Shown: piece by piece, positions 7,520-61,792 of the stretch
Layout of the letters: each line of letters opens with the position of its first letter
Numbering within the stretch: position 1 is the stretch's first letter
Virus record (IMG/VR): IMGVR_UViG_3300046514_000361
Direction: 5' to 3' (one strand)
Origin: an uncultured virus (IMG/VR IMGVR_UViG_3300046514_000361)
Lineage: Duplodnaviria; Heunggongvirae; Uroviricota; Caudoviricetes
Length of the DNA stretch: 64,000 nt
Position numbers and translations under genes: made by a program
Notes under the pieces: generated by a model
Database searches by the model: none
Seen by the model: the letters and a program-made list of their open reading frames with translations, nothing else
What the model was told of the DNA's origin: nothing

Positions 7520-8007
7520 CGTCCGCCACCTACATCATCGGTTCTGACGGCAAGTGGATCACATGCTTGCGCTGCGGAATGACGTCGCACAATTCGTCCG
7601 ACGTGCGCAATCGCTACTGCGGCAACTGCCATCTCTTCCATATCGATCCCGGCCCGCTGGTCGGCTGCGCATTGTCGATCTATCGGCCGGGCCAACCCGA
7701 ACCGGAGATCGTCAACGTCCGCATGGCGAAGCGGCCGTCGCTGGACGAACTGCACGCGATCATCGATCCGTACCTTGAGATCGACGGCGAGAAGCGAAAC
7801 CTTGAGCACGTCAACGTGCTGTTCAACGGCACGCCGCACGACATGTTCGTGGACGAATGTGGCGTGCTCGATGAATTGCCGCGCAACGAGGCAGCGACCG
7901 CGATCTACCGGGCCAACTGGCTGGACATGCATCCAGACGACGATCCTGAATCGCTGCCGCACATCGCAGGCGTGGCGCTCGTGTTCTGGCGGAAGGTGTG
8001 GTCATGA
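7516..8007 (+). CDS. zinc-ribbon + DUF3846-like protein
   Basis: CLRC/CGNC; MFVDECG..LPRNEAAT...IAGVALVF resembles DUF3846. Confidence 0.55.
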   Translation: MTSATYIIGSDGKWITCLRCGMTSHNSSDVRNRYCGNCHLFHIDPGPLVGCALSIYRPGQPEPEIVNVRMAKRPSLDELHAIIDPYLEIDGEKRNLEHVNVLFNGTPHDMFVDECGVLDELPRNEAATAIYRANWLDMHPDDDPESLPHIAGVALVFWRKVWS

Positions 8008-11313: not shown

Positions 11314-11739
11314 TCAGTACGTCAGCGGCTTCAGATTGGCGAAGCAGGCATCGAGCGCATAAACCACGTGCTTTTTCAGGTGCTCGTTTGCGATGCGGTC
11401 GCGCAACTCGTCGCCGACTTCAAGCATATGCTTCCACAGATCAAGTGCGGCCTCGTAGCAAGTGATAATGCGCCCGACGCGCACGGTCTGACCATCTTCT
11501 CCGTCTTCGTTTGTGTAGTCGTAGTTGGCGTGGATGATGTAGCTGTATTTGCCGTGACGGACCCGGAATTCGACACTCCATCCGCTTCCGTCCATACAGG
11601 GGTGGTCCCAGCCGCAAACTCCTTGTGCAATGACCGGCCATTCACTCTCCTTGATCTGGATCGGAGCACGGTTGGTGAGGGTAATGGTGCGCAGCTTTTC
11701 GACTGGCGGCGCAATGGGGGGAGTGACGTTCATGTTCAT
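11314..11739 (-). CDS. hypothetical protein
   Basis: AGGAG SD; RTITLTNRAPIQIKESEWPVIA. Confidence 0.6.
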   Translation of the reverse strand: MNMNVTPPIAPPVEKLRTITLTNRAPIQIKESEWPVIAQGVCGWDHPCMDGSGWSVEFRVRHGKYSYIIHANYDYTNEDGEDGQTVRVGRIITCYEAALDLWKHMLEVGDELRDRIANEHLKKHVVYALDACFANLKPLTY

Positions 11740-11899: not shown

Positions 11900-12181
11900 T
11901 CATTTCGTCGGGTTGATGTGAAGCTCGCGCGTCATGATTTCTACGATCTTCTGAAGGCGGAGGTTGTTCGATTGAGTCTCTTTCTCGGTGACCGTCAAAC
12001 GGTTGTTGATCTCGGCGAGATGCGGCGAGCCGCGCACCTCAAGCGTGCTCACCCGTGTTTCCAGCCTGACCATGTACGCCGTGACGCTGAGCACGGCCGC
12101 GCCGATTGCGATGAATTGCGCGATCAGGAAATAGACGAGCGTCTGGTTCTGACTGAACCAGCTTCTTGCCTTGTCGATCAT
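11900..12181 (-). CDS. single-TM + coiled-coil protein, possible holin-like
   Basis: MIDKARSW... with one TM; last gene of late operon, coupled to the upstream stop. Confidence 0.55.
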   Translation of the reverse strand: MIDKARSWFSQNQTLVYFLIAQFIAIGAAVLSVTAYMVRLETRVSTLEVRGSPHLAEINNRLTVTEKETQSNNLRLQKIVEIMTRELHINPTK

Positions 12182-25039: not shown

Positions 25040-25635
25040 CAGCCCGGCCCCGGAATATTGCCCGCGCCTATCGCGTGAAGGCGCAGCATTTCATCGACAT
25101 TGTCCATGACGGTCTTCATCTGATCGCGGAGATCATTCGCCGTCTGGGCGAGCATGCCTGCCGGGTTGTCAATCGTCTGATCTGGCACGCCATACTCAAC
25201 GAAGCTCATATCGAACACGCAAAACCCCCCGAACTTTTGCTCTTCCGCCCATCGGTAATTCATGTTCACCACATAGGCGGGCGGGATCGTCGGCAACTGC
25301 AGCAGGGCAGGGCCTTCCCTTTCGAGCGCGGCGATCAGCCGGTCGCGCGCCTTGCGATAGTCGCGTTGGTAGAGAAGCTCCGGTGTGTCAAATGGATATG
25401 CGATGCAGTAGCCGCGCACGCTGAACTGTCGCGTCTTGCGTCCCATGTCCTCCGGATAGCCCTGGTCCTTCTTTGGCCACTCGTGGAGCACGATGCGACG
25501 GCCGCTTTCCTTGCTGCCCGTCTCGACGTGGAAAAATGCACCGCCATAGGAAGCGGGCATGAGTTCGTCCCGCCATTTCGTGTTCGGGATATCGGTGATC
25601 TTTGGTCCCGGTCCAGGTACGAATGCCATTGTCAC
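25039..25635 (-). CDS. DNA circulation protein N-terminal domain (DNA_circ_N)
   Basis: WRDELMPASYGG..F.V...GRRIVLHEWP...EDMGR. Confidence 0.85.
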   Translation of the reverse strand: MTMAFVPGPGPKITDIPNTKWRDELMPASYGGAFFHVETGSKESGRRIVLHEWPKKDQGYPEDMGRKTRQFSVRGYCIAYPFDTPELLYQRDYRKARDRLIAALEREGPALLQLPTIPPAYVVNMNYRWAEEQKFGGFCVFDMSFVEYGVPDQTIDNPAGMLAQTANDLRDQMKTVMDNVDEMLRLHAIGAGNIPGPG

Positions 25636-28600
25636 TCGACTCCTGCTCGCCCGGTTGCTTCTCCTTCACTACCCTTACCGAGCGAGCTTGCTGCTGGCTC
25701 CATCTGCGTCTGACGCTGCACCGAGACTTTCTTGAACAAACCGCCAGATGAGGCGCTGACCTTCGTGCCACGCGGCGCATTGACGTCCACGGAAATCTTA
25801 CCGGTACCCTCGACGCGATGCGTAGTTGCGGCATCGATGTTGGCGCGGTCGATTGCGAGCATTGAGCCTGTCGGATCGCTGCGACCGCCGCGCATAGTTG
25901 GATCGAACAACCCACCGCGCGTCGGATCAAACGCACCACTACCCGTGGTCGGATCGTCTCTGCTGCGCGAACCTGAAGGATCGCTGCGGCCGAGGCCGGG
26001 ACGCGTCGGATCGCCGCCGAAATTGATTCCACGCGTTGGATCATCGCGACTGGCCGTACCGGATGGATCGCTTCTTCCGAGGCCGGGGCGTTGATTGAAC
26101 CCAGAACCTGATAAGTCTTTCGAGTCCCTGCTTGCCGTTCCTGACGGGTCAGAATTGCCGAGGCCAGGACGTTGATTGAATCCAGAACCCGATAACTCTT
26201 TCGAGTCTCTGCTTGCTGTCCCTGATGGATCAGAATTGCCGAAGCCAGGACGATTCCAACCTGAGCCGGAAAGCGATTTTGTGTCTCTGCTCTGTGAACC
26301 TGCGGGATCGCTCTTGCCGAGTCCTGGACGACCCGTGGCGTCTATCGCCGACGAACTCATATCTCTGCTGGCAGTCCCCGCCGGATCGGTGGCGCCGAGG
26401 CCGGGACGACCCGATGGCGTCATACCTGGAGTGCCATAGCCACCCTTGCCGATACCGCCATAGCCGCCAGCAAACGAGCGCCCGGCGCCGCCGGTCCACG
26501 TACCGCCGATGGACGATGGTCCACCTCCGCGCTCATCATCTCTAAAACCAGGAGGAAGACCGGAGACCGGAGCGCCCATGCCGCCAAGTCCGCCTTCACT
26601 AACTGGAATGCCACCGCCGCCGCCACCGCCACCACCACCGCCGGGTGAAACCATGCCCTGAGATACGCCGCCCTGTTCGAGCATCTTCTTTGTAAAGATC
26701 GACGCGCGCCCATCACGACCGACGTTGAGCACGAGCGGGCCGTTGTGTGCTTCCTTGAGCAAGGCTTGTTTGAACGCTGGCCATTCCTTTCTCGATACGG
26801 AGAAACAGCCTTCGGTAAACATTCGGTCGAGCGTGTCACCGCTGCCCGGATGAATCTGAATGCCCCCGCGCGGCTGGCCTGGATATTTCGGATCGTTGAT
26901 CACACCGCCAGCGCCGCCGACTGTCGCAATCGATCCGATACGCTGACCGATAGGACCGATGTCGCCACGCCCGATGTTCACGTCATACGTCCCATACGGA
27001 ATGCTGCCGCGCTTCATGCCGCCGCTTTCCCAGTGAAACGTCTGGCCGCCAAGCGCGAGGTTGCCGCCGATCTTGTACGGCCGGTTGGCTTGATCCGGCT
27101 CCGCACCCATCGCGAGCGGGCCACTAGGGCCAGTGCCGCCGCCAGCGCCAGCGCCCGCGCCAGCACCCGCACCGGCACCCGCACCATCTAAGTGAGTGAT
27201 CTGCCCGGCCGCCATCCGTTTTTGCCACTCTAACCATTTAGCGCGGCTGAAATTCCCCGACGTACCCGGCGACCAAAAATATTCGCCACCGGAAGTAAAC
27301 TGTTGTACGAAGCGACCGCTGCTGCCCTCACGTTGTGCGAGGCCGCCCGAGGAATTGTCGGTCGCAAAATTACTGACATTCGATCCGGCGAGAGCGGACT
27401 CAAGTCTTGCTTCAGATGCGGCCCGAAACCCTGCGTCGCGCAGAGCGCCAGGATTATATCCTGCGTAATAGCCACCCTCGCGCGTGGTACGCGCTTCGTG
27501 TTCAAGCGAATGCCCGGATACCGACGCGCGATTCATCGTTTCTTCAAACACAGCCTGATTGGCCGCCGGATCGCGATTTTCACCCGCGCCGATACCAAGC
27601 AATTTTTCGCGCAGCCACGGCTTTTGCTGCAATTCGGCTCTGAACCGTTCGCGATCTTTCGCGAGATTCGCGTTTACGTCGCCGCTGGCCGCTGCCGGGG
27701 TGCCCGCTGCCGGTACGGCTGCATTGCCACCTCCACCGCCGCCACCTCCACCGCCGCGATGCCGCCCACCGCCGCCGAACCCACCGCCGCCGAAGCCGCG
27801 ACCACCACCGCCAAACCCGCCGCCGCCGAATAGACCGCCAAGCATCGAGAAAATGCCGCCGCCACCGAAGCCGCGACCACCTCCACCCAACAAGCCGCCG
27901 AGCATGTTGAAAATGCCGCCGCCACCGCCGAGCAGGCCGCCAAGCATTCCACCGAAGCCACCCATGCCTCGGCCGCCACCAAACCCACCGAAGCCGCCAC
28001 CACCGCCCAGGCCACCGAGAAGTCGCCCGATCATTCCCCCCATCGGACCCATTGCAGGGAAGCCACCACCGCCGCCGCCACCGAAACCAGCCAATCCACC
28101 ACCACCGCCGCCACCACCACCGCCGCCACCGCCGCCGCCGCCGCCGCCGCCCGGAGCGTCCACATTGCTGCCTCCGAGCGTATCAATCGAAAAATGTCCG
28201 GTGTCGGGATTTCTCCAGTGCTCGCCGCCGCTCATTCCCCATTTCTGCTCAAGCGCGTTGAGCGTGCTGCGATTGTTCGATATCCACGCCTGCACATCAC
28301 GGTCCACGACGTTTCGCGAATGCTGCGCCCAATCGACGGCAAGTCCCACCGGGTGCTGCGAAGCGTTGCCGGGGCGAGCACCGACGCCGCCCAAATTTCG
28401 AACCGGCGCTCCCGCCGCAATCAGATCATTGAAGAAGCCCTGGAATTGCGCGGCGCCGCGTTTGTTGACCGTAACTCGCGAGCCGTTCGATAGCGTCACC
28501 GTCTCGCTCTCGCCAGCGCCTATCGGACGCGTGCCCGCAGGGACATTGAAACGGCCGCCGCTTCCGCCACCCGTTCCTGTATTGCCACCAACCGGCAAAC

Positions 28601-30431
28601 CGCTCGCACCTCCGGGAACATCAGTGCTGCCCATGCGTCGGGCCGCACTCACGTCGGTCGGCGCCGTGCCGCCGCTCGCCGGTGGAGTGCCGCCTGTGTT
28701 TACGCCGCCAGGACCACCCGTGGCGAAACCAGTCGGATCAGCGTTGCCCGTGCCGGTGCCGGTGCCCGTGCCGGTGCCGGTGCCGGTGCCCGCGCCTGTG
28801 CCCGCGCCTGTGCCCGTGCCTGTATCAGTGCCGCTGCCAAAACCCGGCAGGCCGCCGAGGCCCTGCATGATCGAAGCGCCCAATGCGCCACCGGCTGCGC
28901 CGCTCTCTGCCGTGCCCGCGCCGGTCCCACCCGGAGTCCCGGCGGTCCCGCCCTTGGCTTTGCCCGGCCCAGACGTCCTGAACAGAAACTCGTTGAGTCG
29001 TTTCAATTCGTCGGTGAGTTGCTTCTCGGTCTTGATCTGTTCGTCAGCCTGATCACCGAGGCCGAACCCTTTCTGCTGCGCAGGCGTGTGTATCGTGACC
29101 CGCTCGCCCGGCGACGCCATGAAGCTGATCGGCTCGCTGTCATCACCGCCGGTGCCGCCGACCATAAACGCGCCGCCGGTCTGGAAGCCACTCGAACGCG
29201 GAGCATAACGTCCGCGATAGAAACCTTGTGACGGCGGATGTGCGGTATCACGCACAGGTGGCCGTGGCCGTTCTCTTTCGCTACTTGGTACAGCCTCTCC
29301 CTTTGCTCGCGCCTGACGCTGCCTTTCTAGTCGTTCCTCTTGTTCTCTGGCGGTCTTCTCCCACTCGCTGAAAATATGGTCCATATGGTTAGCAAACGCT
29401 GTCAGACCGCGAATGACTGCGTTGATACCGGGCGCGCTAAACCGTCCGAAGAATAATGCGGCGGAGTCATCCATTCTCTTCCAGGCACCCGCCATAGCAT
29501 TGACGTTCTCAATATATTCTTTGGCCATTTTCTCGCGCGTTTGCCATGCCGCAAGCTCGTCTGGCGTCATTCCGGCAAACGCAGATTTTACCCGCCAAAG
29601 GTCATGCGTATGAGCAATCTCCCCGGCCATTTCTCGTGCGTGGGCCGCCCTGCTCCGAGCCTCGTCGTCGGAATACATGCGGTTGCCCTGCGCATCGCGG
29701 ACAGCCTGCATTGCCTTGAATGTGTTCTCGTAAGTTAAATTCTGGACGTTTCTCACCCAATTGGCTAAGCCGACGACATCTGATTTTTCTAGTTCCTGTA
29801 ATCTCTGCATCATGGCTTCGCGTTGTGCGACGGCGAGGCCCGCTCCTTGCAGGTATTGCTGAATAACCTGACTGTTCCCCTTCGTCTTGTCGGCCAATGT
29901 ATCGGACAGCCCCTTCAAGTTTTCGGTAATTTGCGACTCGGTCAAACCGGCATCGCGCATCTGTTGGCTTAATTTTTCATACTGACCGCCGAGCAAGCCG
30001 AGCCTCTGCGAGGCAACGGTGATGGCGTCCGTACTTCTCGAAAAGCGGTCGAGTGATTTATATGCTTCCGCTGCGGCGCCTGCGACGACGAGCATAGGCC
30101 CAGCAATGGCGCCGATGCGACCGGCAAGCGGCAAAACCTTTTCGCCGACCGCCCCAAAGCCTTCGGTTAGTGGCTTTAATGCTCCTGTTAGTTCGCCCGC
30201 GCCCTTCGACATTACGCCGAAGATGCGGCCCCAGTCGTGCCCGGCGAATTTCTTTATCTGCTCTTCGAGTACCTTCGTCAGGTCGCCAACTTTGGTAACG
30301 TGGCCATGAAATTGTTTCAGGGCCTCGCCACCACCCATCCTGTCAATCTCGTCATTGATCTTCCGCAGGCCGGGCGAAGCATTGTCCTGCAGATTGACGG
30401 TTAGCTGTAGTTCTTCGTATTCAGTTGCCAT
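25632..30431 (-). CDS. tape measure protein with embedded peptidoglycan-active domains and C-terminal repeats
   Basis: Position between chaperone and gpN; helical N-term; M15-like, SleB-like and LD-transpeptidase-like motifs. Confidence 0.8.
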   Translation of the reverse strand: MATEYEELQLTVNLQDNASPGLRKINDEIDRMGGGEALKQFHGHVTKVGDLTKVLEEQIKKFAGHDWGRIFGVMSKGAGELTGALKPLTEGFGAVGEKVLPLAGRIGAIAGPMLVVAGAAAEAYKSLDRFSRSTDAITVASQRLGLLGGQYEKLSQQMRDAGLTESQITENLKGLSDTLADKTKGNSQVIQQYLQGAGLAVAQREAMMQRLQELEKSDVVGLANWVRNVQNLTYENTFKAMQAVRDAQGNRMYSDDEARSRAAHAREMAGEIAHTHDLWRVKSAFAGMTPDELAAWQTREKMAKEYIENVNAMAGAWKRMDDSAALFFGRFSAPGINAVIRGLTAFANHMDHIFSEWEKTAREQEERLERQRQARAKGEAVPSSERERPRPPVRDTAHPPSQGFYRGRYAPRSSGFQTGGAFMVGGTGGDDSEPISFMASPGERVTIHTPAQQKGFGLGDQADEQIKTEKQLTDELKRLNEFLFRTSGPGKAKGGTAGTPGGTGAGTAESGAAGGALGASIMQGLGGLPGFGSGTDTGTGTGAGTGAGTGTGTGTGTGTGTGNADPTGFATGGPGGVNTGGTPPASGGTAPTDVSAARRMGSTDVPGGASGLPVGGNTGTGGGSGGRFNVPAGTRPIGAGESETVTLSNGSRVTVNKRGAAQFQGFFNDLIAAGAPVRNLGGVGARPGNASQHPVGLAVDWAQHSRNVVDRDVQAWISNNRSTLNALEQKWGMSGGEHWRNPDTGHFSIDTLGGSNVDAPGGGGGGGGGGGGGGGGGGGLAGFGGGGGGGFPAMGPMGGMIGRLLGGLGGGGGFGGFGGGRGMGGFGGMLGGLLGGGGGIFNMLGGLLGGGGRGFGGGGIFSMLGGLFGGGGFGGGGRGFGGGGFGGGGRHRGGGGGGGGGGNAAVPAAGTPAAASGDVNANLAKDRERFRAELQQKPWLREKLLGIGAGENRDPAANQAVFEETMNRASVSGHSLEHEARTTREGGYYAGYNPGALRDAGFRAASEARLESALAGSNVSNFATDNSSGGLAQREGSSGRFVQQFTSGGEYFWSPGTSGNFSRAKWLEWQKRMAAGQITHLDGAGAGAGAGAGAGAGGGTGPSGPLAMGAEPDQANRPYKIGGNLALGGQTFHWESGGMKRGSIPYGTYDVNIGRGDIGPIGQRIGSIATVGGAGGVINDPKYPGQPRGGIQIHPGSGDTLDRMFTEGCFSVSRKEWPAFKQALLKEAHNGPLVLNVGRDGRASIFTKKMLEQGGVSQGMVSPGGGGGGGGGGGIPVSEGGLGGMGAPVSGLPPGFRDDERGGGPSSIGGTWTGGAGRSFAGGYGGIGKGGYGTPGMTPSGRPGLGATDPAGTASRDMSSSAIDATGRPGLGKSDPAGSQSRDTKSLSGSGWNRPGFGNSDPSGTASRDSKELSGSGFNQRPGLGNSDPSGTASRDSKDLSGSGFNQRPGLGRSDPSGTASRDDPTRGINFGGDPTRPGLGRSDPSGSRSRDDPTTGSGAFDPTRGGLFDPTMRGGRSDPTGSMLAIDRANIDAATTHRVEGTGKISVDVNAPRGTKVSASSGGLFKKVSVQRQTQMEPAASSLGKGSEGEATGRAGVE
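25865..26410 (-). repeat. six RPG(L/F)Gx(S/T)DPxGxxSRD peptide repeats plus one partial
   Basis: Read directly from the translation. Confidence 0.85.
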
Positions 30432-30624
30432 TGTCGTCTTCCGACGCACGCGCACTTCGCCGAAGCTCGGCGATCTTTGCGGTGCGCATCAAATGAATTC
30501 TGACTTCAGACAACGGCATGGCGAGAAACACCTCCGGGTTCTGGTGGTACCATTGGGCGAGCCAGTAGCAGTCGAGGACGATGTTTTCGTCCTCACCTAC
30601 CACCACGGCTCCGGAATAAAAAAA
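30421..30624 (-). CDS. tail assembly chaperone -1 frameshift extension
   Basis: Open in the -1 frame after the T7 run: YSGAVVVGEDENIVLDCYWLAQWY... Confidence 0.7.
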   Translation of the reverse strand, partial: FFYSGAVVVGEDENIVLDCYWLAQWYHQNPEVFLAMPLSEVRIHLMRTAKIAELRRSARASEDDNGN

Positions 30625-41900: not shown

Positions 41901-42342
41901 GGGCGCGCTGCGCGTCGTAGACGTTGGACGTGTGGATTACGCCGTCCTTGACGTAGGCCGAGGCGGAATATCCAGGCCCCGGATGCTCGCGCTTGCCGCC
42001 ATCGCTCGGCTTGTCGCCGCCGGTGCTGCCGCCACCGCCGCCGCCCCCACCGCCATCGGTCCACTTGCCGCTTTCGTCGCGCGGGTGCTTGTCCTCTTCG
42101 TACTCACGAGCGGCGCGAGAGTCTGCCGCACTCTTTTTTGAGGTGCCGCCGCCGAGCAGCAACGCGTCGAGATCGGCATCGGACAAGCCGAGCCGCTTGC
42201 CGACGCTGCGGCCCACGCCTTCGGCTGCTTGGTGATCGCCCTGATCGAGGATCGACTGATGTAATTCGGCATCTTCGGCGCGATGGTTGCGCCAGAAGAA
42301 AAGCTCACGCGGGCTTTGCTTTTGCTTTCCCGACGTAGGCAT
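38947..42342 (-). CDS. fusion of ParB-like cargo domain, HK97 prohead protease and major capsid protein
   Basis: LRATQSE...ISKDDYILDGHH; SDESVDRMGDVI, NPIALFNH, AVSVGF, LLETSLVAVPAN; FVGEGAPIPV, LTPKK. Confidence 0.9.
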   Translation of the reverse strand: MPTSGKQKQSPRELFFWRNHRAEDAELHQSILDQGDHQAAEGVGRSVGKRLGLSDADLDALLLGGGTSKKSAADSRAAREYEEDKHPRDESGKWTDGGGGGGGGGSTGGDKPSDGGKREHPGPGYSASAYVKDGVIHTSNVYDAQRALFEDRKVELAQVKQVSTLIKRLGETAAEMAAQGETAPVFNLCNVSVPGTNLFCADTKGIPRVEMPVIPAKQTKEFIKYLKGQGYEVEKGHERAANLRATQSEISGAKVATQMARIKKDGFYKRLVISKDDYILDGHHTWAGQLGIDAQDNNLHDDKNVKIARVNISITKLIAAAEKFTGGKGKKPASESKSAAQVLGEFIRAMELAMPISPHKDETQQAFMGRCVPEMVGTGADKRPQDQAVAACLTIWRDKDKAKTVKQAEDVDPPDDDETYDDFMDRCTDELTDDGDMDPDAAAEQCQMVWDERHAEPATRKSAPPSGRVFKTHVEPVNGMEFILSDESVDRMGDVISATGWDIANFTKNPIALFNHRTDFPIGKWRNLRVEKNTLRGHLVLAPEGTSPRIDEIRRLIEAGILRAVSVGFRPSDYEPLNDSEGKAVGFRFTKQELLETSLVAVPANPNALQVAKSLKISPATLDLVFAGQGRKDAMTRRRGSTGGQARRISINGKGTTMSLAQRVKDSETRLLALKDELRQHFDKVDDTNVTDDDLKRSDELNEKIDAEARTYTVLVESERHLGATSDDSRGGRTTALAVTNGRGSGHGTDTGIGNGVRPFSIAAKKIDPIEYLVRAGTVQLFAHLQRKPLDEIRQAIYGEDEPTRAVLDWATRAATAPAMTTVTGWAAELVQQIVVDFMALLLPKSIFPRLSAMGLSLTFGRNGKIIIPTRSITPTIAGSFVGEGAPIPVRQGAFTSQTLTPKKMAVITTWTREISEHSIPAIEGLLRNAIQEDTAVSLDAVLLDANAATVIRPAGILNGVTALTATTGGGFAALVGDIKQLSGALLTGTRGNVRNPAWLMNPQQVNSAGLVAAPGVGAFPFRDEISRGQLGGWPIIDSGTVPLGTVVAIDAADFVAVGGEAPRFEISDQATLHLEDTSPADIVGGVSPGTPAFPTKSMWQTDSLALRLIMPINWVIRRPGTVAWTQSVTW

Positions 42343-43936
42343 TAAACCGATCCATCGTTTCCTTGTCCTTCAGGTTGAGCGCGCCATACCAATCGGTGCC
42401 GAGCAGGAGTTTTTTGCCGTACTTCGAATCCGCAATGGCCCAAAGAGCTTTTGGGTCGTTGCTTTGTGTCAGCTTGCGCAGCCGTTCAGCGTCGTCCGCG
42501 CTCATCTCCCCGGTGCCTTCAACGCCGCCGCTTACCGTGAGGAAATCCGACGCGTTGTCCTCAGCCCATCGGTATTTTTCGCGGTCGTCCATCTGGTCCC
42601 AGTATTCGCCCTGGTATTCCTCGACGCTGTCACTCAGATAATCCGGCGGTTCGATGTCGTCGGCCTTGTGCTCCGCTTCACGGTCGAACGCCTTGTCGAT
42701 CACACTCGTCAGCCCGTCGCGCATCTCAGGGGTCAACCGCTCGTGCGGCGCGACCGGTGGAATGCCCGGCAATGTTTCCTGCGCTGGATCGTGACCTGTC
42801 GGGTTCGTCAGCTTGTGATCGACAAACTGAACTTCAAGGTCGCCCCTGCCATCGCCGCCACCGGTGTCGTAGTTGAGCGAAACCGCATTCAGAATCTGCT
42901 CATCGGTAAATGGAATTTCAGATTGGCCCTGCTCCTCGCGGCTCTTGCGATAACCCGCGATGGCGTGCTCGGCCCAATCCATGGTGCCGCCCTTGTTGAA
43001 GTCTTCCGCGACGGCCGCCTTGGCGTCATCGAGGGGCTGGCCGCCATCGCGCCAATTATTGATCTCGCTATCCAAAAATTCGCTGCGCGTGCTGCGCATC
43101 CAGGCGCCTTCAATTTTCGACTGGTTGCTGCTCGGCAGATCGTCCCAGCTACCTGCAGCATCGCCGCTTCCGCCGCCACTGCTAAGCTTGTCGATCTCGT
43201 AATCCAGGTCACCGCGCAGGTTAGGCCAAGAACCGCGCTCGGGTACGTAGCCGTATTTTGCCCACGCGTAGCCGCCGACGTCGATGTCGGCGTGGACCTG
43301 CACCTTGTCGAGGCCAAGCTTCTGGTACATCGCAATGTTCGCTGCGAGCACTGTCTTGCCAATGCCCGCGCTCTGCGAACTGTCGTCCAACTTGAAATAT
43401 TCGCTGATCGCTTTCTTTTGGGCGAAATCAATCGTGCGGGTGTACTCGCCAATCCCGTCGCCATTGGCATCCTTGAGAGTCCCGGCAACAACGAATTTGT
43501 CGTCGCCCTCTTCGTAGCGGATTCCCATCGAGGCATTGATGCCGCCAAGGAATTCCTTGCGAAACTCGGCAGGCGCTTCCGCGATACGCGAATTCCACAC
43601 ATCGACAAATTTCTTCTGCTTGTCGGGATTTGACTGCGTCCCCGGATCGAGCCTGATTTCGTCTTTCGCAAAGTCGGCAATCTCGATTTTCTTCTTCTCG
43701 CCGCCAGCCTCGCTTCCACCCGGCGCAGCAGGCTTTGCTTCGGCTGCGGGCTTGTCGGTGCCAGTGCTGCTGCTGCCGCCACCGCCGCCCCCACCGCCAT
43801 CGGTCCACTTGCCGCTTTCGTCGCGCGGATGCTTCGACTCGTCGTACTCGCGCAGCCGCGCGAGCGACTGCGCCTTGAGCGCCAGGAAGCGGGCGCGCCG
43901 CAGTGACTGATCAGAATCGCGCGCCAGTGCTTCCAT
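42305..43936 (-). CDS. putative virion-internal protein with GNAT-like domain
   Basis: YDESKHPRDESGKWTDGG; QSAGIGK.VL...YQKLG...HADIDVGGYAWAKYGY. Confidence 0.7.
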   Translation of the reverse strand: MEALARDSDQSLRRARFLALKAQSLARLREYDESKHPRDESGKWTDGGGGGGGGSSSTGTDKPAAEAKPAAPGGSEAGGEKKKIEIADFAKDEIRLDPGTQSNPDKQKKFVDVWNSRIAEAPAEFRKEFLGGINASMGIRYEEGDDKFVVAGTLKDANGDGIGEYTRTIDFAQKKAISEYFKLDDSSQSAGIGKTVLAANIAMYQKLGLDKVQVHADIDVGGYAWAKYGYVPERGSWPNLRGDLDYEIDKLSSGGGSGDAAGSWDDLPSSNQSKIEGAWMRSTRSEFLDSEINNWRDGGQPLDDAKAAVAEDFNKGGTMDWAEHAIAGYRKSREEQGQSEIPFTDEQILNAVSLNYDTGGGDGRGDLEVQFVDHKLTNPTGHDPAQETLPGIPPVAPHERLTPEMRDGLTSVIDKAFDREAEHKADDIEPPDYLSDSVEEYQGEYWDQMDDREKYRWAEDNASDFLTVSGGVEGTGEMSADDAERLRKLTQSNDPKALWAIADSKYGKKLLLGTDWYGALNLKDKETMDRFNAYVGKAKAKPA

Positions 43937-48039: not shown

Positions 48040-48435
48040 TGGTTGGACGGCAGTAGCCAGTCCAGTCGGTGACCTAGTGCAGTAGCCAGACGTCACCTAG
48101 GGCCTTCGGGGCCGACCACTCGCAAAGCGCCAGATACGGGCGCACCAGAGAACTCCCGACGGAACGCTGATCGCGCGACACCGGCAACGCCCACGGGCAA
48201 TGCCACCGACGTTGCTGCGGAAAAGTAGCTCCCTGTGCCCGGTGCCGCTCGCAAATGAGGACGATGGCGGGGTTCAAGTGGGGAAGCGAGGATTGATGCG
48301 AGCCGAAAACGGGGAACTGCAGAGCGCGGTGGCCATGTTGGCAATGCCAGAGAACGAAGCGCCCCACCAAAATGAAATGAGTAACATCAAACACTGCGGC
48401 GGCTTTCGAGCCGCCGCATTATTGATGCATCTCAC
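48040..48435 (+). ncRNA. candidate ~400-nt structured leader RNA
   Basis: No credible ORF; serial hairpins; GCAGTAGCCAG x2, GGCAATGCCA x2, CTCGCAAA x2. Confidence 0.45.
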
Positions 48436-48449
48436 AACAGGAGTCACCC

Positions 48450-48704
48450 ATGACACGCAATCAAGCACTGCCCTACGTTTCGTTCTGCGTTGACGACGCG
48501 TTGTCGGAACGCAAGCTCGCCGACATGCCGTCGAATGCGCGGCTTGTCGGTTGGCAGTGCGGCTTCGAACCGCTGTTCGTCGCCGTGTGGTCCTACCTCG
48601 ACGTCACGCTTGACGATGACGAGGCGGCCGAGATCGCAACCGATCTGCTGGCCGAAAAGAAATGGTTCGCAGGCGAGCCGACGTCACCCGACTACATCAT
48701 CTGA
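48450..48704 (+). CDS. hypothetical protein
   Basis: GGAGTCACC RBS. Confidence 0.7.
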   Translation: MTRNQALPYVSFCVDDALSERKLADMPSNARLVGWQCGFEPLFVAVWSYLDVTLDDDEAAEIATDLLAEKKWFAGEPTSPDYII

Positions 48705-48800
48705 GTCACATCAAAGCGCGGCCCCGAGCGGGCCGCGTCATTGATGCATCTCGCATCCGCCGCTGCAAACGGCGTCCAATCCAAAAACGGAGTCACCCCA

Positions 48801-50834: not shown

Positions 50835-52367
50835 ATGTCAGACCTTCTCACCACCACCGCAATGCAGCGCGTCCAGCGGGCGCGCAGCGAACTGATCATG
50901 TCGCGGCGGTTCTACGGTGTGCTCGTCTCGAACGTCGAGCCGATCATCACCCGCAAGCACGAGACTGCGGCGACGAACGGACGCCAGCACTTCTGGAATC
51001 CCGACTACATCGCCACGCTGAAACAGGACAACGTGTTGTTCGTGCAGGCGCACGAGAGCGAGCACGATGCCCGACATCACAGCACACGGCGCAACGGTCG
51101 CGACCCGGAGCGATGGAATAGGGCTTGCGACTACGGGATCAACATCGATCTCGTTGACGAAGGCTTCGTGCCGCCGCCGGGCATCTTGCTCGACGCGAGG
51201 TTTCGCGGCATGAGCGCCGAGGAAATCTACCGGTGCCTTGAGCTTGACGAGGCCGCGCAGCAACAGCAGCAACAGCCGCAGCCGCAGGAAGGCGACGGCG
51301 ATGCCGACGAAGACGAGCAGCCGCAGTCCAACGGCGACGACAGCAACGACGCTGGCGACGACCAGGGCAAGAACCAGGGCGACGACGCGAGCGACGACGC
51401 TGGCGACGACCAGGGCGAGGGCGGTTCGGGCGACGCCGACGATGGTGACGCTGATCAGGACGCAGGTTCTGGCGGCGATGCCGACGACGGCGAAGGCCAG
51501 GGCGGCGACGCCGAGGGCGAAGGCTCTGACGCTGAAGGCGGCAACGGTGCTGGCAACGGCAGCGGCGACGCCGAGGGCGACGACCAGGGCGAAGGCTCTG
51601 GCGCGGGCGACGCGGACGGCGAGGGCGCTGGCAGCAAGCCGGTCGTCGGCGACGTCGGCGGCTGCGGCGAGGTGCTCGACGCGAGCGACGAGCCGGGTGA
51701 TCTCTCCGAGCAAGATGCCAAGTGGGAGCGGATCACGCGGCAAGCGGCATCGCTGGCGAAGGCTATCGGGCAGTGCCCCGGCCACATCACGCGCGAGATC
51801 GAACGGTCGAATAATCCGACCCAAGACTGGCGCGAGGTGCTGCGGTCCTATTTCGATCAAGGTGCGCTTCGCACCGAGACCTGGAATAGGCCGAACCGTC
51901 GCCACATCGGCCGGGGCGTAGTCCTGCCCGGCTCGCAGCGCGACGGCGTGAACAAGGCGTGCTTTCTGATCGATACCAGCGGATCGATCTACAGCGACCC
52001 GGTGGCGTTGCAGCTTGTTCGCGACGAGGCGCAGGCCGCGCTTGACGACCGTATTGTTGACGAGGCCGTCGTGATCTACGGCGACACGGCGGTCACGCGT
52101 GTTGACACCTACCGCACGGGCGACGAGATCGAGTTCGACCCGCGCGGCGGTGGCGGCACCGACATGAAGCCGCTGTTTGAGTACGTCGCGGAAGAGCACG
52201 ACGACGCATCGCTGATCGTCTGCTTCACCGACCTTGAGATCGGCGACCCCGGCGTCGAGCCGCATTGCCCGACGCTGTTCGCCGTGACCGGCTATCCGCA
52301 GCGGGTGCGCGAGCTTATCGCGAACGCCCCGTGGGGTGCGCCGTGCATCGACGTCGGTGCGCACTGA
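50835..52367 (+). CDS. DUF2201-type metallopeptidase-like + acidic linker + VWA protein
   Basis: TAATNG; HESEH; WNRACDYGIN; IDTSGS; GGGGTD; FTD. Confidence 0.85.
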   Translation: MSDLLTTTAMQRVQRARSELIMSRRFYGVLVSNVEPIITRKHETAATNGRQHFWNPDYIATLKQDNVLFVQAHESEHDARHHSTRRNGRDPERWNRACDYGINIDLVDEGFVPPPGILLDARFRGMSAEEIYRCLELDEAAQQQQQQPQPQEGDGDADEDEQPQSNGDDSNDAGDDQGKNQGDDASDDAGDDQGEGGSGDADDGDADQDAGSGGDADDGEGQGGDAEGEGSDAEGGNGAGNGSGDAEGDDQGEGSGAGDADGEGAGSKPVVGDVGGCGEVLDASDEPGDLSEQDAKWERITRQAASLAKAIGQCPGHITREIERSNNPTQDWREVLRSYFDQGALRTETWNRPNRRHIGRGVVLPGSQRDGVNKACFLIDTSGSIYSDPVALQLVRDEAQAALDDRIVDEAVVIYGDTAVTRVDTYRTGDEIEFDPRGGGGTDMKPLFEYVAEEHDDASLIVCFTDLEIGDPGVEPHCPTLFAVTGYPQRVRELIANAPWGAPCIDVGAH

Positions 52368-52434: not shown

Positions 52435-52671
52435 ATGAGCTACTGCCCTTGGACAAAAAATTTACACACCACGCACGAGGCCGGGAGACGGAAAGCCACA
52501 AAACGGACGCACAAGCCGAAGCCCGCGCAGCCATCGAGGTTCTCGACGCATAGCCACTTCAAGCAAGAGATCGGACTCGGATCGCGCCCAGACGTTTGTG
52601 CAAATTGCCGAATGCCGTTCGAAGACCACTACAACGGCGCGTGTCCGAAAGACGAAAACGAGAAAAGTTAG
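52435..52671 (+). CDS. hypothetical protein
   Basis: GGAGTCACC RBS; CANC. Confidence 0.55.
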   Translation: MSYCPWTKNLHTTHEAGRRKATKRTHKPKPAQPSRFSTHSHFKQEIGLGSRPDVCANCRMPFEDHYNGACPKDENEKS

Positions 52672-52766
52672 AGTCGTATCAAAGCGCCGCCCCATGCGGG
52701 CGGCGTCGTTGATGCATCTCGCATCACGCCGGTGCAAAACGGCGAACACATGAAACGGAGTCACCC

Positions 52767-53581: not shown

Positions 53582-53744
53582 CGCCCACACCAAAGACGAC
53601 GGCTCGTGGTGGGAGCACGATGCGCGCGGCATTCCGCTTTGCCGCGTTTGCGCCAAGTGCAAGCGCCGCAAGCTTGCGCACTACCGGCCCGAGGTGCTGT
53701 CCGATCCCAACTACGTGGCGGACGAACCGATTGATGAAGACTGA
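53571..53744 (+). CDS. 57-aa Zn-binding phage protein
   Basis: Hand translation ...SWWEHDARGIPLCRVCAKC...YRPEVL; GAGGAG SD. Confidence 0.65.
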   Translation: MDCDAHTKDDGSWWEHDARGIPLCRVCAKCKRRKLAHYRPEVLSDPNYVADEPIDED

Positions 53745-53783
53745 AAAAGAGAAAGCCGGGGACCGTGAGGCCGCCCGGCTTTC
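53744..53783 (-). terminator. intrinsic terminator of the sRNA
   Basis: Minus strand gaaagccggg...cccggctttc followed by tcttttt. Confidence 0.75.
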
Positions 53784-53841
53784 CCGTTGGAATGCGGATC
53801 GCGTGCAAACGCGACCTGCGTGGAGTCACCCTTCCAACAGT
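53744..53841 (-). ncRNA. candidate antisense sRNA carrying seed GGGUGACUCC
   Basis: Own promoter and terminator; seed (53822-53831) in a 12-nt bulge between two stems. Confidence 0.75.
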
Positions 53842-53845
53842 GCGG

Positions 53846-53874
53846 AGGTTAGGGCCACGGTCCTGCACCGTCAA
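53846..53874 (-). promoter_or_regulatory. sigma70 promoter of the sRNA
   Basis: TTGACG (53874-53869), 17-nt spacer, TAACCT (53851-53846). Confidence 0.75.
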
Positions 53875-53880
53875 TTGGCG

Positions 53881-53889
53881 TTATCCACA
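53881..53889 (+). promoter_or_regulatory. perfect DnaA box
   Basis: TTATCCACA, 6 nt upstream of the sRNA -35. Confidence 0.45.
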
Positions 53890-53947
53890 GGTGGGTGCTG
53901 CGAGAGATCAGCCAACTTTTGGCACACTCTCGGCCCGCCGCACGCTT

Positions 53948-53978
53948 TTGACCCGAGGGTGACAATTTGTCATACACA
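53948..53978 (+). promoter_or_regulatory. island promoter P2 with second operator
   Basis: TTGACC -35; GTGACA ATT TGTCAT (53959-53973); -10 weak. Confidence 0.55.
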
Positions 53979-54007
53979 CGCCAATCAACCGAAACCAGGA
54001 GTCACCG

Positions 54008-54235
54008 ATGACCACCACGACACAGAATCCAAACTGCAGCGGCAACCATTGCCGCTCCACCACCGGCGAGGTTCGCGTCTACCCGCTCGGCGGCGGCGGC
54101 AACTTGATCCTCTGCATCGCTTGCTGGGCGCATGAGAACCGCTACCGGTTCGAGCGCGGGCGCGAGACGCGCGAGCCTGCGAACTGGCCCCAGGTCGATT
54201 GGGCCACAGCGGAAGTCTACGGAGGTGCGTCATGA
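54008..54235 (+). CDS. hypothetical Cys-containing protein
   Basis: GGAGTCACC RBS. Confidence 0.65.
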   Translation: MTTTTQNPNCSGNHCRSTTGEVRVYPLGGGGNLILCIACWAHENRYRFERGRETREPANWPQVDWATAEVYGGAS

Positions 54236-54603: not shown

Positions 54604-54803
54604 CCGACCGTGAAGTTCTCGCCATGCTGCGCGGTTCGCCGAGCGGCACCACCGAAGCGATGGCGGCGTTGCACGGCATCGACCGCGCCCAGCTTGATCG
54701 GCTTGTTGCCGCAGGCCGGGCACGCGTCCAGATGCAGGCGCTCCACAAGCCACGCATCGTCAAGTTCGCCACGTTCTTTTTCAACTCTCAACAGGAAACA
54801 TGA
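54600..54803 (+). CDS. small hypothetical protein
   Basis: ATGA coupling. Confidence 0.5.
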   Translation: MTDREVLAMLRGSPSGTTEAMAALHGIDRAQLDRLVAAGRARVQMQALHKPRIVKFATFFFNSQQET

Positions 54804-55063
54804 CCATGACACTCACACGTCTCGCCATCGTGCTGGCGTTGTTCGCGCCAGCCGATGCACTCGCACAGTCCAGCACTTTCTACGACGCGTCCGGCCGCGT
54901 GTCGGGTCGCTCGGCCACCGACAGCGGCGGCGCGACCACGTTCTACGATCCGAGCGGGCGCGTCACGAACCGCGCATCTATCGATAGCCAGGGCACCACG
55001 ACGATCTATGACGCAAGCGGGCGCAAGGTCGGAACTGATCCAACGCAGGAGAAACGACGATGA
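54800..55063 (+). CDS. small secreted protein with three T(F/I)YDxSGR repeats
   Basis: Signal peptide ending ADALA; repeats in translation. Confidence 0.7.
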   Translation: MTMTLTRLAIVLALFAPADALAQSSTFYDASGRVSGRSATDSGGATTFYDPSGRVTNRASIDSQGTTTIYDASGRKVGTDPTQEKRR

Positions 55064-56606: not shown

Positions 56607-56619
56607 AAGGAGTCACCTC

Positions 56620-58223: not shown

Positions 58224-58631
58224 ATGAACACGATCAAGTCTCTGGCGGCCACCATCCTGGCCGTCGCTACTCTAGCGACCGGGCAAGCTCGCGCGGCCGA
58301 CTACTTCACCACGAGCGCATTCCTTGCTCACTGCGACAGCCCTGTCGATTATCATCAGGTCGCTTGCAGCTTCTACGCGGCGGCCATCGCCGATGCCTAT
58401 CGCGCGCTTGCGCTCGCGACGTATGACCCAACCTCGCAGTACGTCAGCTTCGCTGGCATTTGCATGCCATTGCAGATCGGTGCCAACGAGGTAATCGCCT
58501 TCACGCGCGAAGAGGCGGGCGGTGCGCGCGGTTACTCGTCGCTAAAGCTTGAGGCCCCGGCGTCGGTCACGGCGTTCGCCGGGCTGCGCAAGGCTTACCC
58601 CTGCCCGAGACAGCCGAGGCAGGGGTCGTGA
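58224..58631 (+). CDS. Rap1a/Tai-like periplasmic immunity protein
   Basis: Signal peptide; LAHC...C..Y...IAD...ICMP...PAS....GLRKAYPC. Confidence 0.7.
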   Translation: MNTIKSLAATILAVATLATGQARAADYFTTSAFLAHCDSPVDYHQVACSFYAAAIADAYRALALATYDPTSQYVSFAGICMPLQIGANEVIAFTREEAGGARGYSSLKLEAPASVTAFAGLRKAYPCPRQPRQGS

Positions 58632-61484: not shown

Positions 61485-61792
61485 CCCTTTTCCCTCGGCC
61501 GCTCAGCGGCGACGACCCGCCGGGCCATGGTCCCAGCGGGCCGCCCCAAAGTCGCACCCACGAGCGCGCCAGCAAGCTCTGCAGGGCTTTTAACCTGCAC
61601 CTCTCCCAGCCTGTCCTGCCTTCGTTCCCGATTCGACCCTTGTCCAACCTGGACAGGAGTCACGCCTGATCGGCGTTAACGTGCCCGCATCCTAACCGGC
61701 AGCGCGCCAACCACTTAACCTCAAACCAACGTTGGCCAGACTCTCGGCCTTTGTGCGGCCGGGCAGATCGCCAAACCCATTGGGGCATAAGC

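Follow-up and report, generated by a model that had tools for sequence, protein, structure and literature searches.

A shared early-gene ribosome-binding motif and its candidate partner small RNA in an uncultured group of soil phages

A 64,000-nucleotide stretch of DNA from an uncultured virus of the class Caudoviricetes (IMG/VR record IMGVR_UViG_3300046514_000361; 'the window' hereafter denotes this entire stretch) carries one extended ribosome-binding site (RBS) motif ahead of 13 of its genes and, within positions 53744–53874, a structured element built around a copy of the same motif which belongs to no gene. Comparison with related phage sequences leads us to conclude that this element is real, conserved and functionally tied to the standardised RBS of the early genes. 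It is probably an RNA gene of ∼95 bases read from the opposite strand, and its architecture suggests that one RNA can switch off a whole class of genes. We consider, with moderate confidence, a trans-acting anti-RBS small RNA (sRNA) encoded on the minus strand to be the most likely mechanism; since the targets are direct repeats of the element, an RNA that pairs with them must come from the opposite strand.

The motif GGAGTCACCC is found 18 times in the window when at most one mismatch is allowed, compared with 3.5 occurrences expected, and none of 100 shuffled sequences reached 18. Nine exact copies are located on the plus strand between 48440 and 58217, eight of them with an ATG within 0–6 nucleotides (nt), and five copies with one mismatch likewise precede an ATG, which yields a total of 13 gene starts (one of these, at 56609, opens a frame of only 31 amino acids (aa)). 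The first-pass annotation had placed the motif over the Shine-Dalgarno (SD) sequence of 13 genes, and the count of eight exact and five one-mismatch copies bears this out. The 13 RBS copies of GGAGTCACC(C), which make up repeat families D2 and D4, start at 48440, 48789, 49880, 50825, 52425, 52757, 53998, 56609, 56830, 57072, 57612, 57852 and 58208 and typically appear in the context aaaC-GGAGTCACCC-N0-6-ATG. Hence, 13 of the 14 plus-strand copies between 48 and 58 kb sit 0–6 nt ahead of an ATG; all gene-linked copies are confined to the plus strand from 48.4 to 58.2 kb, and the structural genes (12–48 kb, minus strand) are devoid of the motif. Pairing of the TCACCC extension with the 3' end of 16S rRNA was considered and rejected by eye against the usual 16S 3'-end sequence.

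The remaining exact copy, at 53822–53831, is the sole exact copy without an ATG. The earlier claim that no other copy lacks a following ATG therefore holds for exact copies and fails once a mismatch is admitted, since the copy GGAGTCACGC at 61656–61665 on the plus strand also has no start codon; that copy lies where the open reading frames (ORFs) run on the minus strand, and one such copy is at chance level. A GTG located 8 nt past the 53822 copy opens a 40-aa frame, which is not conserved in relatives. A small ORF behind the orphan copy was accordingly rejected: the window offers only this GTG, 14 nt from the GGAG, and the relatives offer nothing.

Read on the minus strand, the element starts with TTGACG (53874–53869), a 17-nt spacer and TAACCT (53851–53846); this promoter-like site (53846–53874) is followed by CCGCA, so that the -10 element ends 5 nt ahead of a stalk. 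The candidate sRNA itself (∼95 nt; 53744–53840, minus strand), as delineated from sequence and predicted fold, comprises (i) the stalk with 5' arm CUGUUGGAA (53832–53840) and 3' arm UUCCAACGG (53784–53792), (ii) a bulged 12-nt anti-RBS stretch GGGUGACUCCAC (53820–53831), predicted by RNAfold to be unpaired save for a weak 3-bp GUG/CAC contact, (iii) an inner hairpin, 'hairpin B', GCAGGUCGCGUUUGCACGCGAUCCGC with loop UUUGCA (53794–53819), which a single A separates from the 3' arm of the stalk, and (iv) a terminator hairpin (53751–53783) followed by a U-tract. Only the minus side of the terminator hairpin has a U-rich tail (UCUUUUU); its plus-side counterpart is TTTCCCGTT. Within the bulge, the proposed seed GGGUGACUCC (53822–53831) matches the RBS motif of the early genes exactly when reverse-complemented. 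In all these features, from promoter-like site to U-tract, the anatomy agrees base for base with that given in the first-pass annotation, and the complementarity of the seed to the shared motif is likewise confirmed by the sequence. RNAfold applied to 53744–53845 of the minus strand (102 nt) returned the stalk, the inner hairpin and the terminator hairpin at -53 kcal/mol (z = -5.16), and none of 200 shuffled sequences folded as well. At one position of the stalk, a U-G pair on the minus strand corresponds to a C-A mismatch on the plus strand. Rfam 15 provided no match at gathering score for the whole window, and none at E≤10 over 53650–54010.

Relatives of the window phage were collected from metagenomes and IMG/VR by means of the MoxR protein and of a DUF2201 alignment. 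In 15 loci (the window, L172, L020, L169, L142, L160, L165, L018, L185, L182, L176, L199/L201, L202, L162 and L187, which include some close pairs and represent ∼10 related groups) the plus strand exhibits the same order of a terminator hairpin, a hairpin with a ..GCAA.. loop and a copy, attached to no gene, of the RBS motif typical of the respective lineage, with DUF2201 proteins that are only ∼50–65% identical. The ..GCAA..-loop hairpin adjoins the orphan motif in 14 of the 14 loci tested. In L020, whose MoxR protein is 71% identical to that of the window, the start-less copy GGAGTCACTC occupies the loop of a GAGGGG/CCCCUC hairpin, with a CGCGC-CUGCAAA-GCGCG hairpin and a terminator ahead of it; the entire unit is enclosed by the stalk UGUUCGAU/AUCGAACA, which differs from the stalk of the window in two pairs, each changed on both sides. 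Stems are likewise retained with different sequences in L199, L202, L018 and L181, and GC-rich stems hold the orphan copies of the relatives in their loops, the alternative being a bulge like that of the window. Around most RBSs of actual genes, in contrast, the flanking sequence looks A/C-rich. The scaffolds of the element are too divergent for a single alignment, and MAFFT gave no structural alignment.

A variant is found in a 16th locus, L181, where the minus strand has a hairpin CGGCCGCCCG-[GUGGUUUGCUCCUA]-CGGGCGGCCG at a distance of 32 nt ahead of a tRNA-Glu gene on the same strand; TTGACT-17-CATTTT is situated upstream of the hairpin. The 10-bp GC hairpin (11680–11715) presents a 14-nt loop complementary to the lineage RBS motif GGAGCAAACCA, and the phage tRNA-Glu(UUC) gene (11588–11662, minus strand) downstream of it would allow processing by RNase P in this lineage. 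A 13-nt gene-less match in L174 stands in another context.

Many related lineages carry an extended motif of their own ahead of their early genes, that is, GGAGTCAC in L020, L143, L160, L165, L168 and L169, AATGGAGTCA in L142 and L182, GAAAGGTCAC in L021 and L153, GATGGAGAGA in L161 (14–17 copies), cAAAGGAGCAAc in L174 and L155, cAAATGGAGAa in L176, L199 and L201, GGAAATGGAGATTTCCAA in L202, GGAGTCTAC in L187, L162 and L148, ACAAGGAGTC in L185, GGAGCAA(a/g)c in L181 and L184, and AAACGGAG in L018. The gene-less copy follows these motifs. In the window, the orphan GGAGTCACCC and the RBS consensus GGAGtCACcc have the 3' extension CCC in common; the L160 orphan CGAGTCACAC and the RBS consensus GGAGtCaca have ACAC in common; and in L142 orphan and RBS both have a T before the GGAG. 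The L018 loop AAACGAAGTCAAA differs from the conserved RBS part AAACGGAG by a G-to-A change which still permits a G-U pair on the opposite strand. The loop CCAAATGGAGAAAGC of L199 corresponds to the RBS consensus AAATGGAGA, and in the same scaffold L202 carries the loop TGGAGATTTCCAAG alongside the RBS consensus GGAAATGGAGATTTCCAA. L020 (GGAGTCACT) and L169 (CCAAACAAACGGAAAC) represent different parts of one common RBS consensus caaacaaacGGAGTCAC. Chance would supply roughly one 7-mer orphan in each 20-kb strand, but would not account for matches as long as the 10–17 nt observed. The covariation of seed and RBS in related phages, for which the first-pass annotation had proposed to look, is thus seen, the loop changing along with the lineage's motif, and at the level of sequence comparison it shows that the unit is functionally linked to the RBS motifs.

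Several routes by which further homologues were sought led elsewhere. An exact 18-mer scan retrieved only identical copies plus two chance matches inside terminase genes; two gapped DNA patterns recovered only the window phage and L020, their remaining hits (5 of 8 and 4 of 8, respectively) being chance; and a contig scan with the MoxR alignment yielded distant CbbQ/NorQ-type ATPases (≤47% identity) and no useful locus. L012–L014, relatives by way of a 75-aa neighbouring protein, possess neither motif nor element. The gene-less GATGGAG copies of L161 were set aside as no obvious homologue, being the arms of a repeated terminator-like hairpin; these arms, GAGCCACGCGCGATGGAG...CACTCCGCGACTC, are once split by an insert of ∼100 nt (1100–1700) and once form a compact hairpin between convergent genes (12110–12160), and ∼600 nt of the former region, upstream of the first motif gene, are without an obvious ORF. 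In L202 the conserved RBS (copies at 7903, 9027, 9975, 11983 and 12621) extends over 21 nt, AACGGAAATGGAGATTTCCAA, whose flanks GGAAAT/ATTTCC are an inverted repeat, so that each mRNA would present the GGAG in a 4-nt loop on top of a 6-bp stem.

Covariation of the loop is by itself silent on the strand, because a mimic made in sense orientation would follow the motif just as well. The most serious alternative to an antisense RNA is then that the orphan acts on the sense strand, or as DNA, as a gene-less copy of a leader cassette, that is, as a mimic, decoy or binding site read by an RBS-binding protein of phage or host, by a factor akin to RegA or RegB of phage T4, or by a DNA-binding protein. 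We consider this unlikely, if still the best placed of the competing explanations. It has in its favour that the orphan points in the same direction as all 13 RBS copies, and that proteins acting class-wide on the RBSs of early genes exist, such as T4 RegB, which recognizes GG*AGRAYARAA, and RegA (PMC3014915). Moreover, hairpin-B-like stem-loops are found upstream of two real plus-strand genes of the window. An intergenic cassette upstream of the MoxR gene (48703–48776, plus strand; repeats D6 and D9) consists of a GC hairpin, the box TTGATGCATCTCGCA and the stem-loop CGCCG-CUGCAAA-CGGCG, and a second copy with 86% column identity to the first precedes a 172-aa gene (52671–52745, plus strand). 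Their stem-loops (48760–48776 and 52728–52745) are located ∼12–20 nt ahead of the RBS motif and have the same loop sequence (TGCAAA) as hairpin B; similar stem-loops stand before genes in L018 and L169. Because of these stem-loops, the orphan could be a gene-less leader cassette, and thus may be the analogue of an extended start-associated sequence followed by a start-associated sequence, as known from certain mycobacteriophages discussed below. The same leader stem-loops also fit the antisense sRNA, which would be complementary to both the RBS motif and the leader loop in antiparallel order.

What speaks for the minus strand is the location of the transcription signals. On the minus strand, 11 of the 16 loci have the pattern TTGNNN-17-TANNNN no more than 110 nt upstream of the anti-motif; a plus-strand reading of the same DNA gives it in none of the 16, and the background is 1.8% of random windows; spacers of 16–18 nt were allowed, and all matches have exactly 17. 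When the distance is restricted to 75 nt, the pattern persists in 8 of 16 loci, which corresponds to 5 of 11 related groups. L176 and L202 both have TTGCAA-17-TACATC with unlike spacers. Furthermore, the element directly borders the terminator hairpin, which is where an sRNA body would be expected, and on the plus strand it follows directly behind a T6–T8 terminator in 9 of 14 loci, which leaves no space for a plus-strand promoter. With terminator tails read by eye, the U-rich tail is found on the minus side only in the window, L176, L199 and L162; most other loci have it on both sides, while L185 and L187 have it on the plus side only or not at all. The unit of L181 likewise points to the minus strand in being situated ahead of a minus-strand tRNA gene. 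A sigma-54 reading of an upstream TGGCTG..TCGCA was dropped, its spacing (inspected by eye) not being kept in the relatives.

The minus-strand RNAs are predicted to be classic three-hairpin sRNAs. The L199 RNA folds at -65.3 kcal/mol (z = -6.2) with the whole anti-motif in a loop of 11–13 nt, and a 14-nt loop is predicted for L202. When borders were set by hand, the minus strand folded better in five of five loci; the difference was 0.1 to 3.7 kcal/mol for the element without its terminator, and larger with the terminator included. For hairpin B on its own, the minus strand gives the better fold in 12 of 14 loci, compared with 49% of random strong windows.

Further evidence against a sense-strand cassette comes from the orphans themselves. 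That L020 and L169 carry different sub-parts of the same RBS consensus, and that the SD cores of the L169 and L018 orphans are weakened (GGAA and GAAG, respectively), fits base pairing better than recognition of one fixed sub-motif. In a DNA site, the GC stems that enclose the orphan would serve no obvious purpose, and the neighbouring helix-turn-helix (HTH) gene has palindromic operator-like sites of its own, which are different. In the window, L020, L160 and L142, the loci in which the next operon can be read, the unit is followed at 100–400 nt by a rightward promoter-like site with a palindromic operator-like sequence and by an HTH gene. In the window this site, TTGACC-17-CATACA (53948–53976, plus strand), holds the palindrome TGACAATTTGTCA (53960–53972) in its spacer and diverges from the candidate sRNA promoter; GGTGACAATTTG is kept in L020 (17653–17680) ahead of the HTH gene there. 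L160 and L142 have another palindrome, TGTCGCA-N3-TGCGACA, ahead of theirs. To judge by these sequences, the divergent promoter-like region with its palindromes looks like a switch region.

A number of observations weigh against an antisense sRNA and have to be set beside the foregoing. As to transcription, the window's promoter-like site matches the consensus at only 8 of 12 positions (TAACCT at 3 of the 6 positions of the -10 element), the promoter pattern is absent in 5 of the 16 loci, a strict consensus promoter scan listed none in the window, L020, L160 and L142, and the 24 sequencing runs in which DNA of the window is present are all DNA runs, from rhizosphere and soil metagenomes, with no RNA run listed. 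As to folding, a test with a uniform length of 100 nt gives the minus strand no advantage (5 of 14 loci), which also speaks for a sense cassette, the preference of hairpin B for the minus strand may be a by-product of its conserved loop, and the window's own hairpin B has its better fold on the plus strand (-17.0 versus -14.6 kcal/mol). Moreover, the predicted folds of L020, L160, L165 and L172 pair part of the anti-motif in a small apical hairpin; the earlier proposal of a seed exposed as a 12-nt bulge thus describes the fold of the window, where only the weak 3-bp contact intervenes, and is not universal. In L160 and L165 the anti-SD reads CUCG instead of CUCC. Finally, ∼12 related loci with at least 5 kb of downstream sequence (among them L174 with the match just mentioned in another context, and L161, L184, L186, L193, L194 and L195 with nothing convincing) showed no typical element in an automated context test, which was loose in that 196 of 2040 random positions (9.6%) passed and which missed the window's own orphan owing to the 40-aa GTG frame; six further loci without a typical unit end within ∼2 kb of the DUF2201 gene.

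It is also conceivable, and we would rate this as more doubtful than a sense-strand cassette, that an RNA is made from the minus strand for another purpose, the match to phage RBSs being secondary. Such an RNA might be a cis-antisense or insulating transcript directed against read-through from the upstream operon, might regulate host mRNAs by its CUCC, or might be bound by a protein at the ..GCAA.. loop. The minus-strand promoter-like and terminator signals are equally in line with this explanation; read-through is likely in the window because the plus-side terminator tail is weak; and the conserved loop of hairpin B suggests a specific contact. However, the loop follows the lineage RBS motif even within one scaffold (L199 versus L202), which would be needless for host targets or insulation, and the RNA overlaps the upstream coding sequence by no more than its stop codon. 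Least probable, and disfavoured, is a relic, that is, the leftover RBS of a lost gene homogenised by recombination among repeats: the copies are indeed repeats, and the early regions are mosaic with differing gene content after the DUF2201 gene, but position and architecture are the same in 15 loci with strongly diverged DUF2201 proteins, stems surround the copies, a conserved frame behind them is lacking and a promoter-like site faces them from the opposite strand.

Returning to the trans-acting sRNA as the preferred explanation, we propose that the minus strand of 53744–53840 would encode an RNA of ∼95 nt as a unit with its own sigma-70-type promoter (53874–53846) and intrinsic terminator (53783–53744). 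Its 5' domain would hold GGGUGACUCC, unpaired or weakly paired, between stalk and hairpin, and this segment would pair with the extended SD sequence GGAGUCACCC common to 13 early, non-structural genes. Pairing would block binding of the 30S subunit and perhaps invite cleavage by RNases, and thereby lower translation of the entire gene class. The UUUGCA loop, being complementary to the CUGCAAA leader loop of two of the target genes, might provide a first 'kissing' contact. Expression of the RNA, its pairing with the RBSs, the ensuing repression and its timing, at an early-to-late switch or in lysogeny, are inferences.

Predicted energies are compatible with such pairing. The seed is complementary to eight RBSs over 10 of 10 nt and to five more over 9 of 10 nt, and the bulge is mostly unpaired in the minimum free energy fold, the cost of opening the 10-nt seed being 3.9 kcal/mol. 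With the net interaction defined as the hybrid energy plus both opening costs, the 13 motif genes average -11.1 kcal/mol (range -6.1 to -15.7), compared with +0.9 kcal/mol for 11 other plus-strand starts and +4.9 kcal/mol for 12 late-gene starts, whose start sites are approximate. These calculated energies speak to plausibility only, as they largely follow from the complementarity itself. Unrestricted duplex folding was discarded, the resulting duplexes being unrealistically long.

The genomic setting is that of a phage or prophage. The minus-strand block from 12 to 48 kb encodes structural genes of myovirus type, as identified by PHROG matches to the small and large terminase subunits, portal, major head/protease fusion, tail sheath, baseplate, tail fibres and endolysin. 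The plus-strand block from 48.4 to ∼60.2 kb, divergent from the terminase gene, consists mostly of small genes and includes those for a MoxR-type AAA ATPase, a DUF3150 protein, a DUF2201 metallopeptidase/von Willebrand factor A (VWA) protein, an HTH_3 protein and a radical-SAM protein. The motif-bearing block is hence an early region without structural genes, belonging to an uncultured phage or prophage, and the label 'island' under which it had first been described has to be given up in favour of an early region next to a structural module. Among 20 ORFs of the window scanned, none matched integrase or repressor families. Nucleotide searches against cultured phages returned zero matches; the large terminase subunit (TerL) is nearest to those of Ralstonia and Burkholderia phages (45–46% identity at best), and the MoxR protein is at most 37% identical to those of cultured phages. 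The nearest record, the IMG/VR fragment G001, is identical to the window across the element and thus has no comparative value.

Some further features of this region deserve mention. A box, GCCGC.T..TTGATGCATCTC(A/G)CA, with the palindrome GATGCATC is present in three copies (48413–48436, 48732–48755 and 52700–52723), located ahead of the first early gene, of the MoxR gene and of the 172-aa gene, respectively; in two of these a GC-rich hairpin precedes and a CGCCG-(C/G)TGCAAA(A)-CGGCG stem-loop follows. Box and hairpins together could be an early promoter/operator cassette, by analogy with the extended start-associated sequences of Cluster K mycobacteriophages. The DUF2201 metallopeptidase/VWA protein (50835–52367, plus strand) contains an acidic, Gly/Asp/Glu-rich insert of low complexity of ∼130 residues, coded by short tandem-like repeats (repeat families D1, D3 and D5). 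Two proteins of the plus-strand block, a secreted-looking one of 87 aa (54800–55063) with a weak RHS-repeat match (E 5e-6) and one of 135 aa (58224–58631) with a sub-threshold match to Rap1a immunity proteins (E 4.6e-4), may, to judge from these matches, represent accessory or competition genes within the motif-bearing set. Within the structural module, ORFs of 1607 aa (25632–30455, minus strand) and 543 aa (42305–43936, minus strand) have no PHROG match at E≤1e-5; the former is located where a tape-measure protein is expected.

The closest described counterpart of the shared motif is the set of start-associated sequences (SAS) of Cluster K mycobacteriophages, asymmetric 13-mers which contain the SD sequence, occur in 11–19 copies located 3–7 bp before mostly ATG starts, and are confined to the non-structural half of the genome in a single orientation (PMC3203893). 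About half of these copies have an inverted repeat just upstream, forming an extended SAS (ESAS), and in the authors' view the SAS might be bound either by an RNA or by a protein (PMC3203893). Some Cluster K genomes also contain a single gene-less copy in opposite orientation (PMC3203893, PMC12699233), and according to a survey of 188 Cluster K genomes in 2025 the role of the SAS is still in need of experimental verification (PMC12699233). The window motif is likewise asymmetric, ∼10–13 nt long, inclusive of the SD core and conserved beyond what pairing with 16S rRNA needs, and its copies likewise stand a few bases before an ATG, in one orientation and in the non-structural part only; a stem-loop precedes 2 of the 13 copies, reminiscent of the ESAS. 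However, the Cluster K consensus is GGGATAGGAGCCC, and those phages are siphoviruses with hosts from another phylum. Moreover, the gene-less copy of the window lies within a conserved structured unit with promoter-like and terminator signals, and we found no partner RNA proposed for the SAS (PMC3203893, PMC12699233). Because sequences and phage groups are unrelated, we regard the window motif, on the sequences at hand, as an analogue of the SAS and not as a member or homologue. The first-pass annotation had not recognised a described system here; for the shared RBS the Cluster K SAS now provide a described analogue, and with respect to the RNA the statement stands in that no published proposal of an RNA partner for such motifs was found in open-access full text.

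As regards the candidate RNA, several systems offer themselves for comparison. The C4 immunity RNAs of phages P1 and P7 and the CI RNA of P4 are small structured phage RNAs which pair through unpaired loops or bulges with repeated sites in phage mRNAs of the early/immunity region; they are cut from a same-strand operon transcript (by RNase P) and have two or three targets. The candidate of the window similarly presents a bulge complementary to repeated sites of the phage early region, but the unit lies on the opposite strand with its own predicted promoter, its 13 targets are the RBSs themselves, and it has no Rfam match. RsaE and RNAIII of Staphylococcus are multi-target sRNAs in which CUCC/UCCC in hairpin loops pairs with the SD regions of several mRNAs. 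The three-hairpin architecture with intrinsic terminator resembles theirs, but their targets share only the generic SD sequence, whereas the targets in the window phage have a standardised extension of 8–13 nt which changes in step with the RNA loop from one phage lineage to another. Stoperators serve as DNA sites to which a repressor binds and are not tied to a start codon. The window motif resembles them in being a short asymmetric site present in many copies, intergenic and in one orientation, with an additional copy at a regulatory region; in contrast to them, it is tightly spaced to the ATG and the SD sequence is part of it. Those of Cluster A mycobacteriophages are mentioned alongside the SAS (PMC3203893). 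In phage T4, early genes are shut off class-wide through their ribosome-binding regions by the endoribonuclease RegB, which reads an extended GGAG-containing motif, and by the translational repressor RegA (PMC3014915). Unlike these proteins, the effector proposed here is an RNA which would owe its specificity to base pairing. By analogy, then, the candidate sRNA would work like C4 and CI RNAs, anti-SD sRNAs and RegA/RegB, and is a member of none of these groups.

A motif class resembling the SAS is now apparent in an unrelated phage group, and together with it a conserved candidate partner whose loop changes with the motif. It is tempting to speculate, and we regard the matter as evenly balanced, that a group of myovirus-like phages from soil and rhizosphere possesses a standardised RBS and a matching anti-RBS sRNA which co-evolve as a pair lineage by lineage, the loop being rewritten as the motif drifts. 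Since both motif and candidate partner are concrete, the question is directly testable. If the proposal is true, it would provide the first mechanism for SAS-like motifs, unexplained since 2011, and an RNA of ∼100 nt would represent a phage-private, programmable master switch of translation. Such an RNA would be a compact private means of addressing all early genes together, the RNA counterpart of T4 RegA and RegB, and would offer a natural template for the design of orthogonal translational switches.

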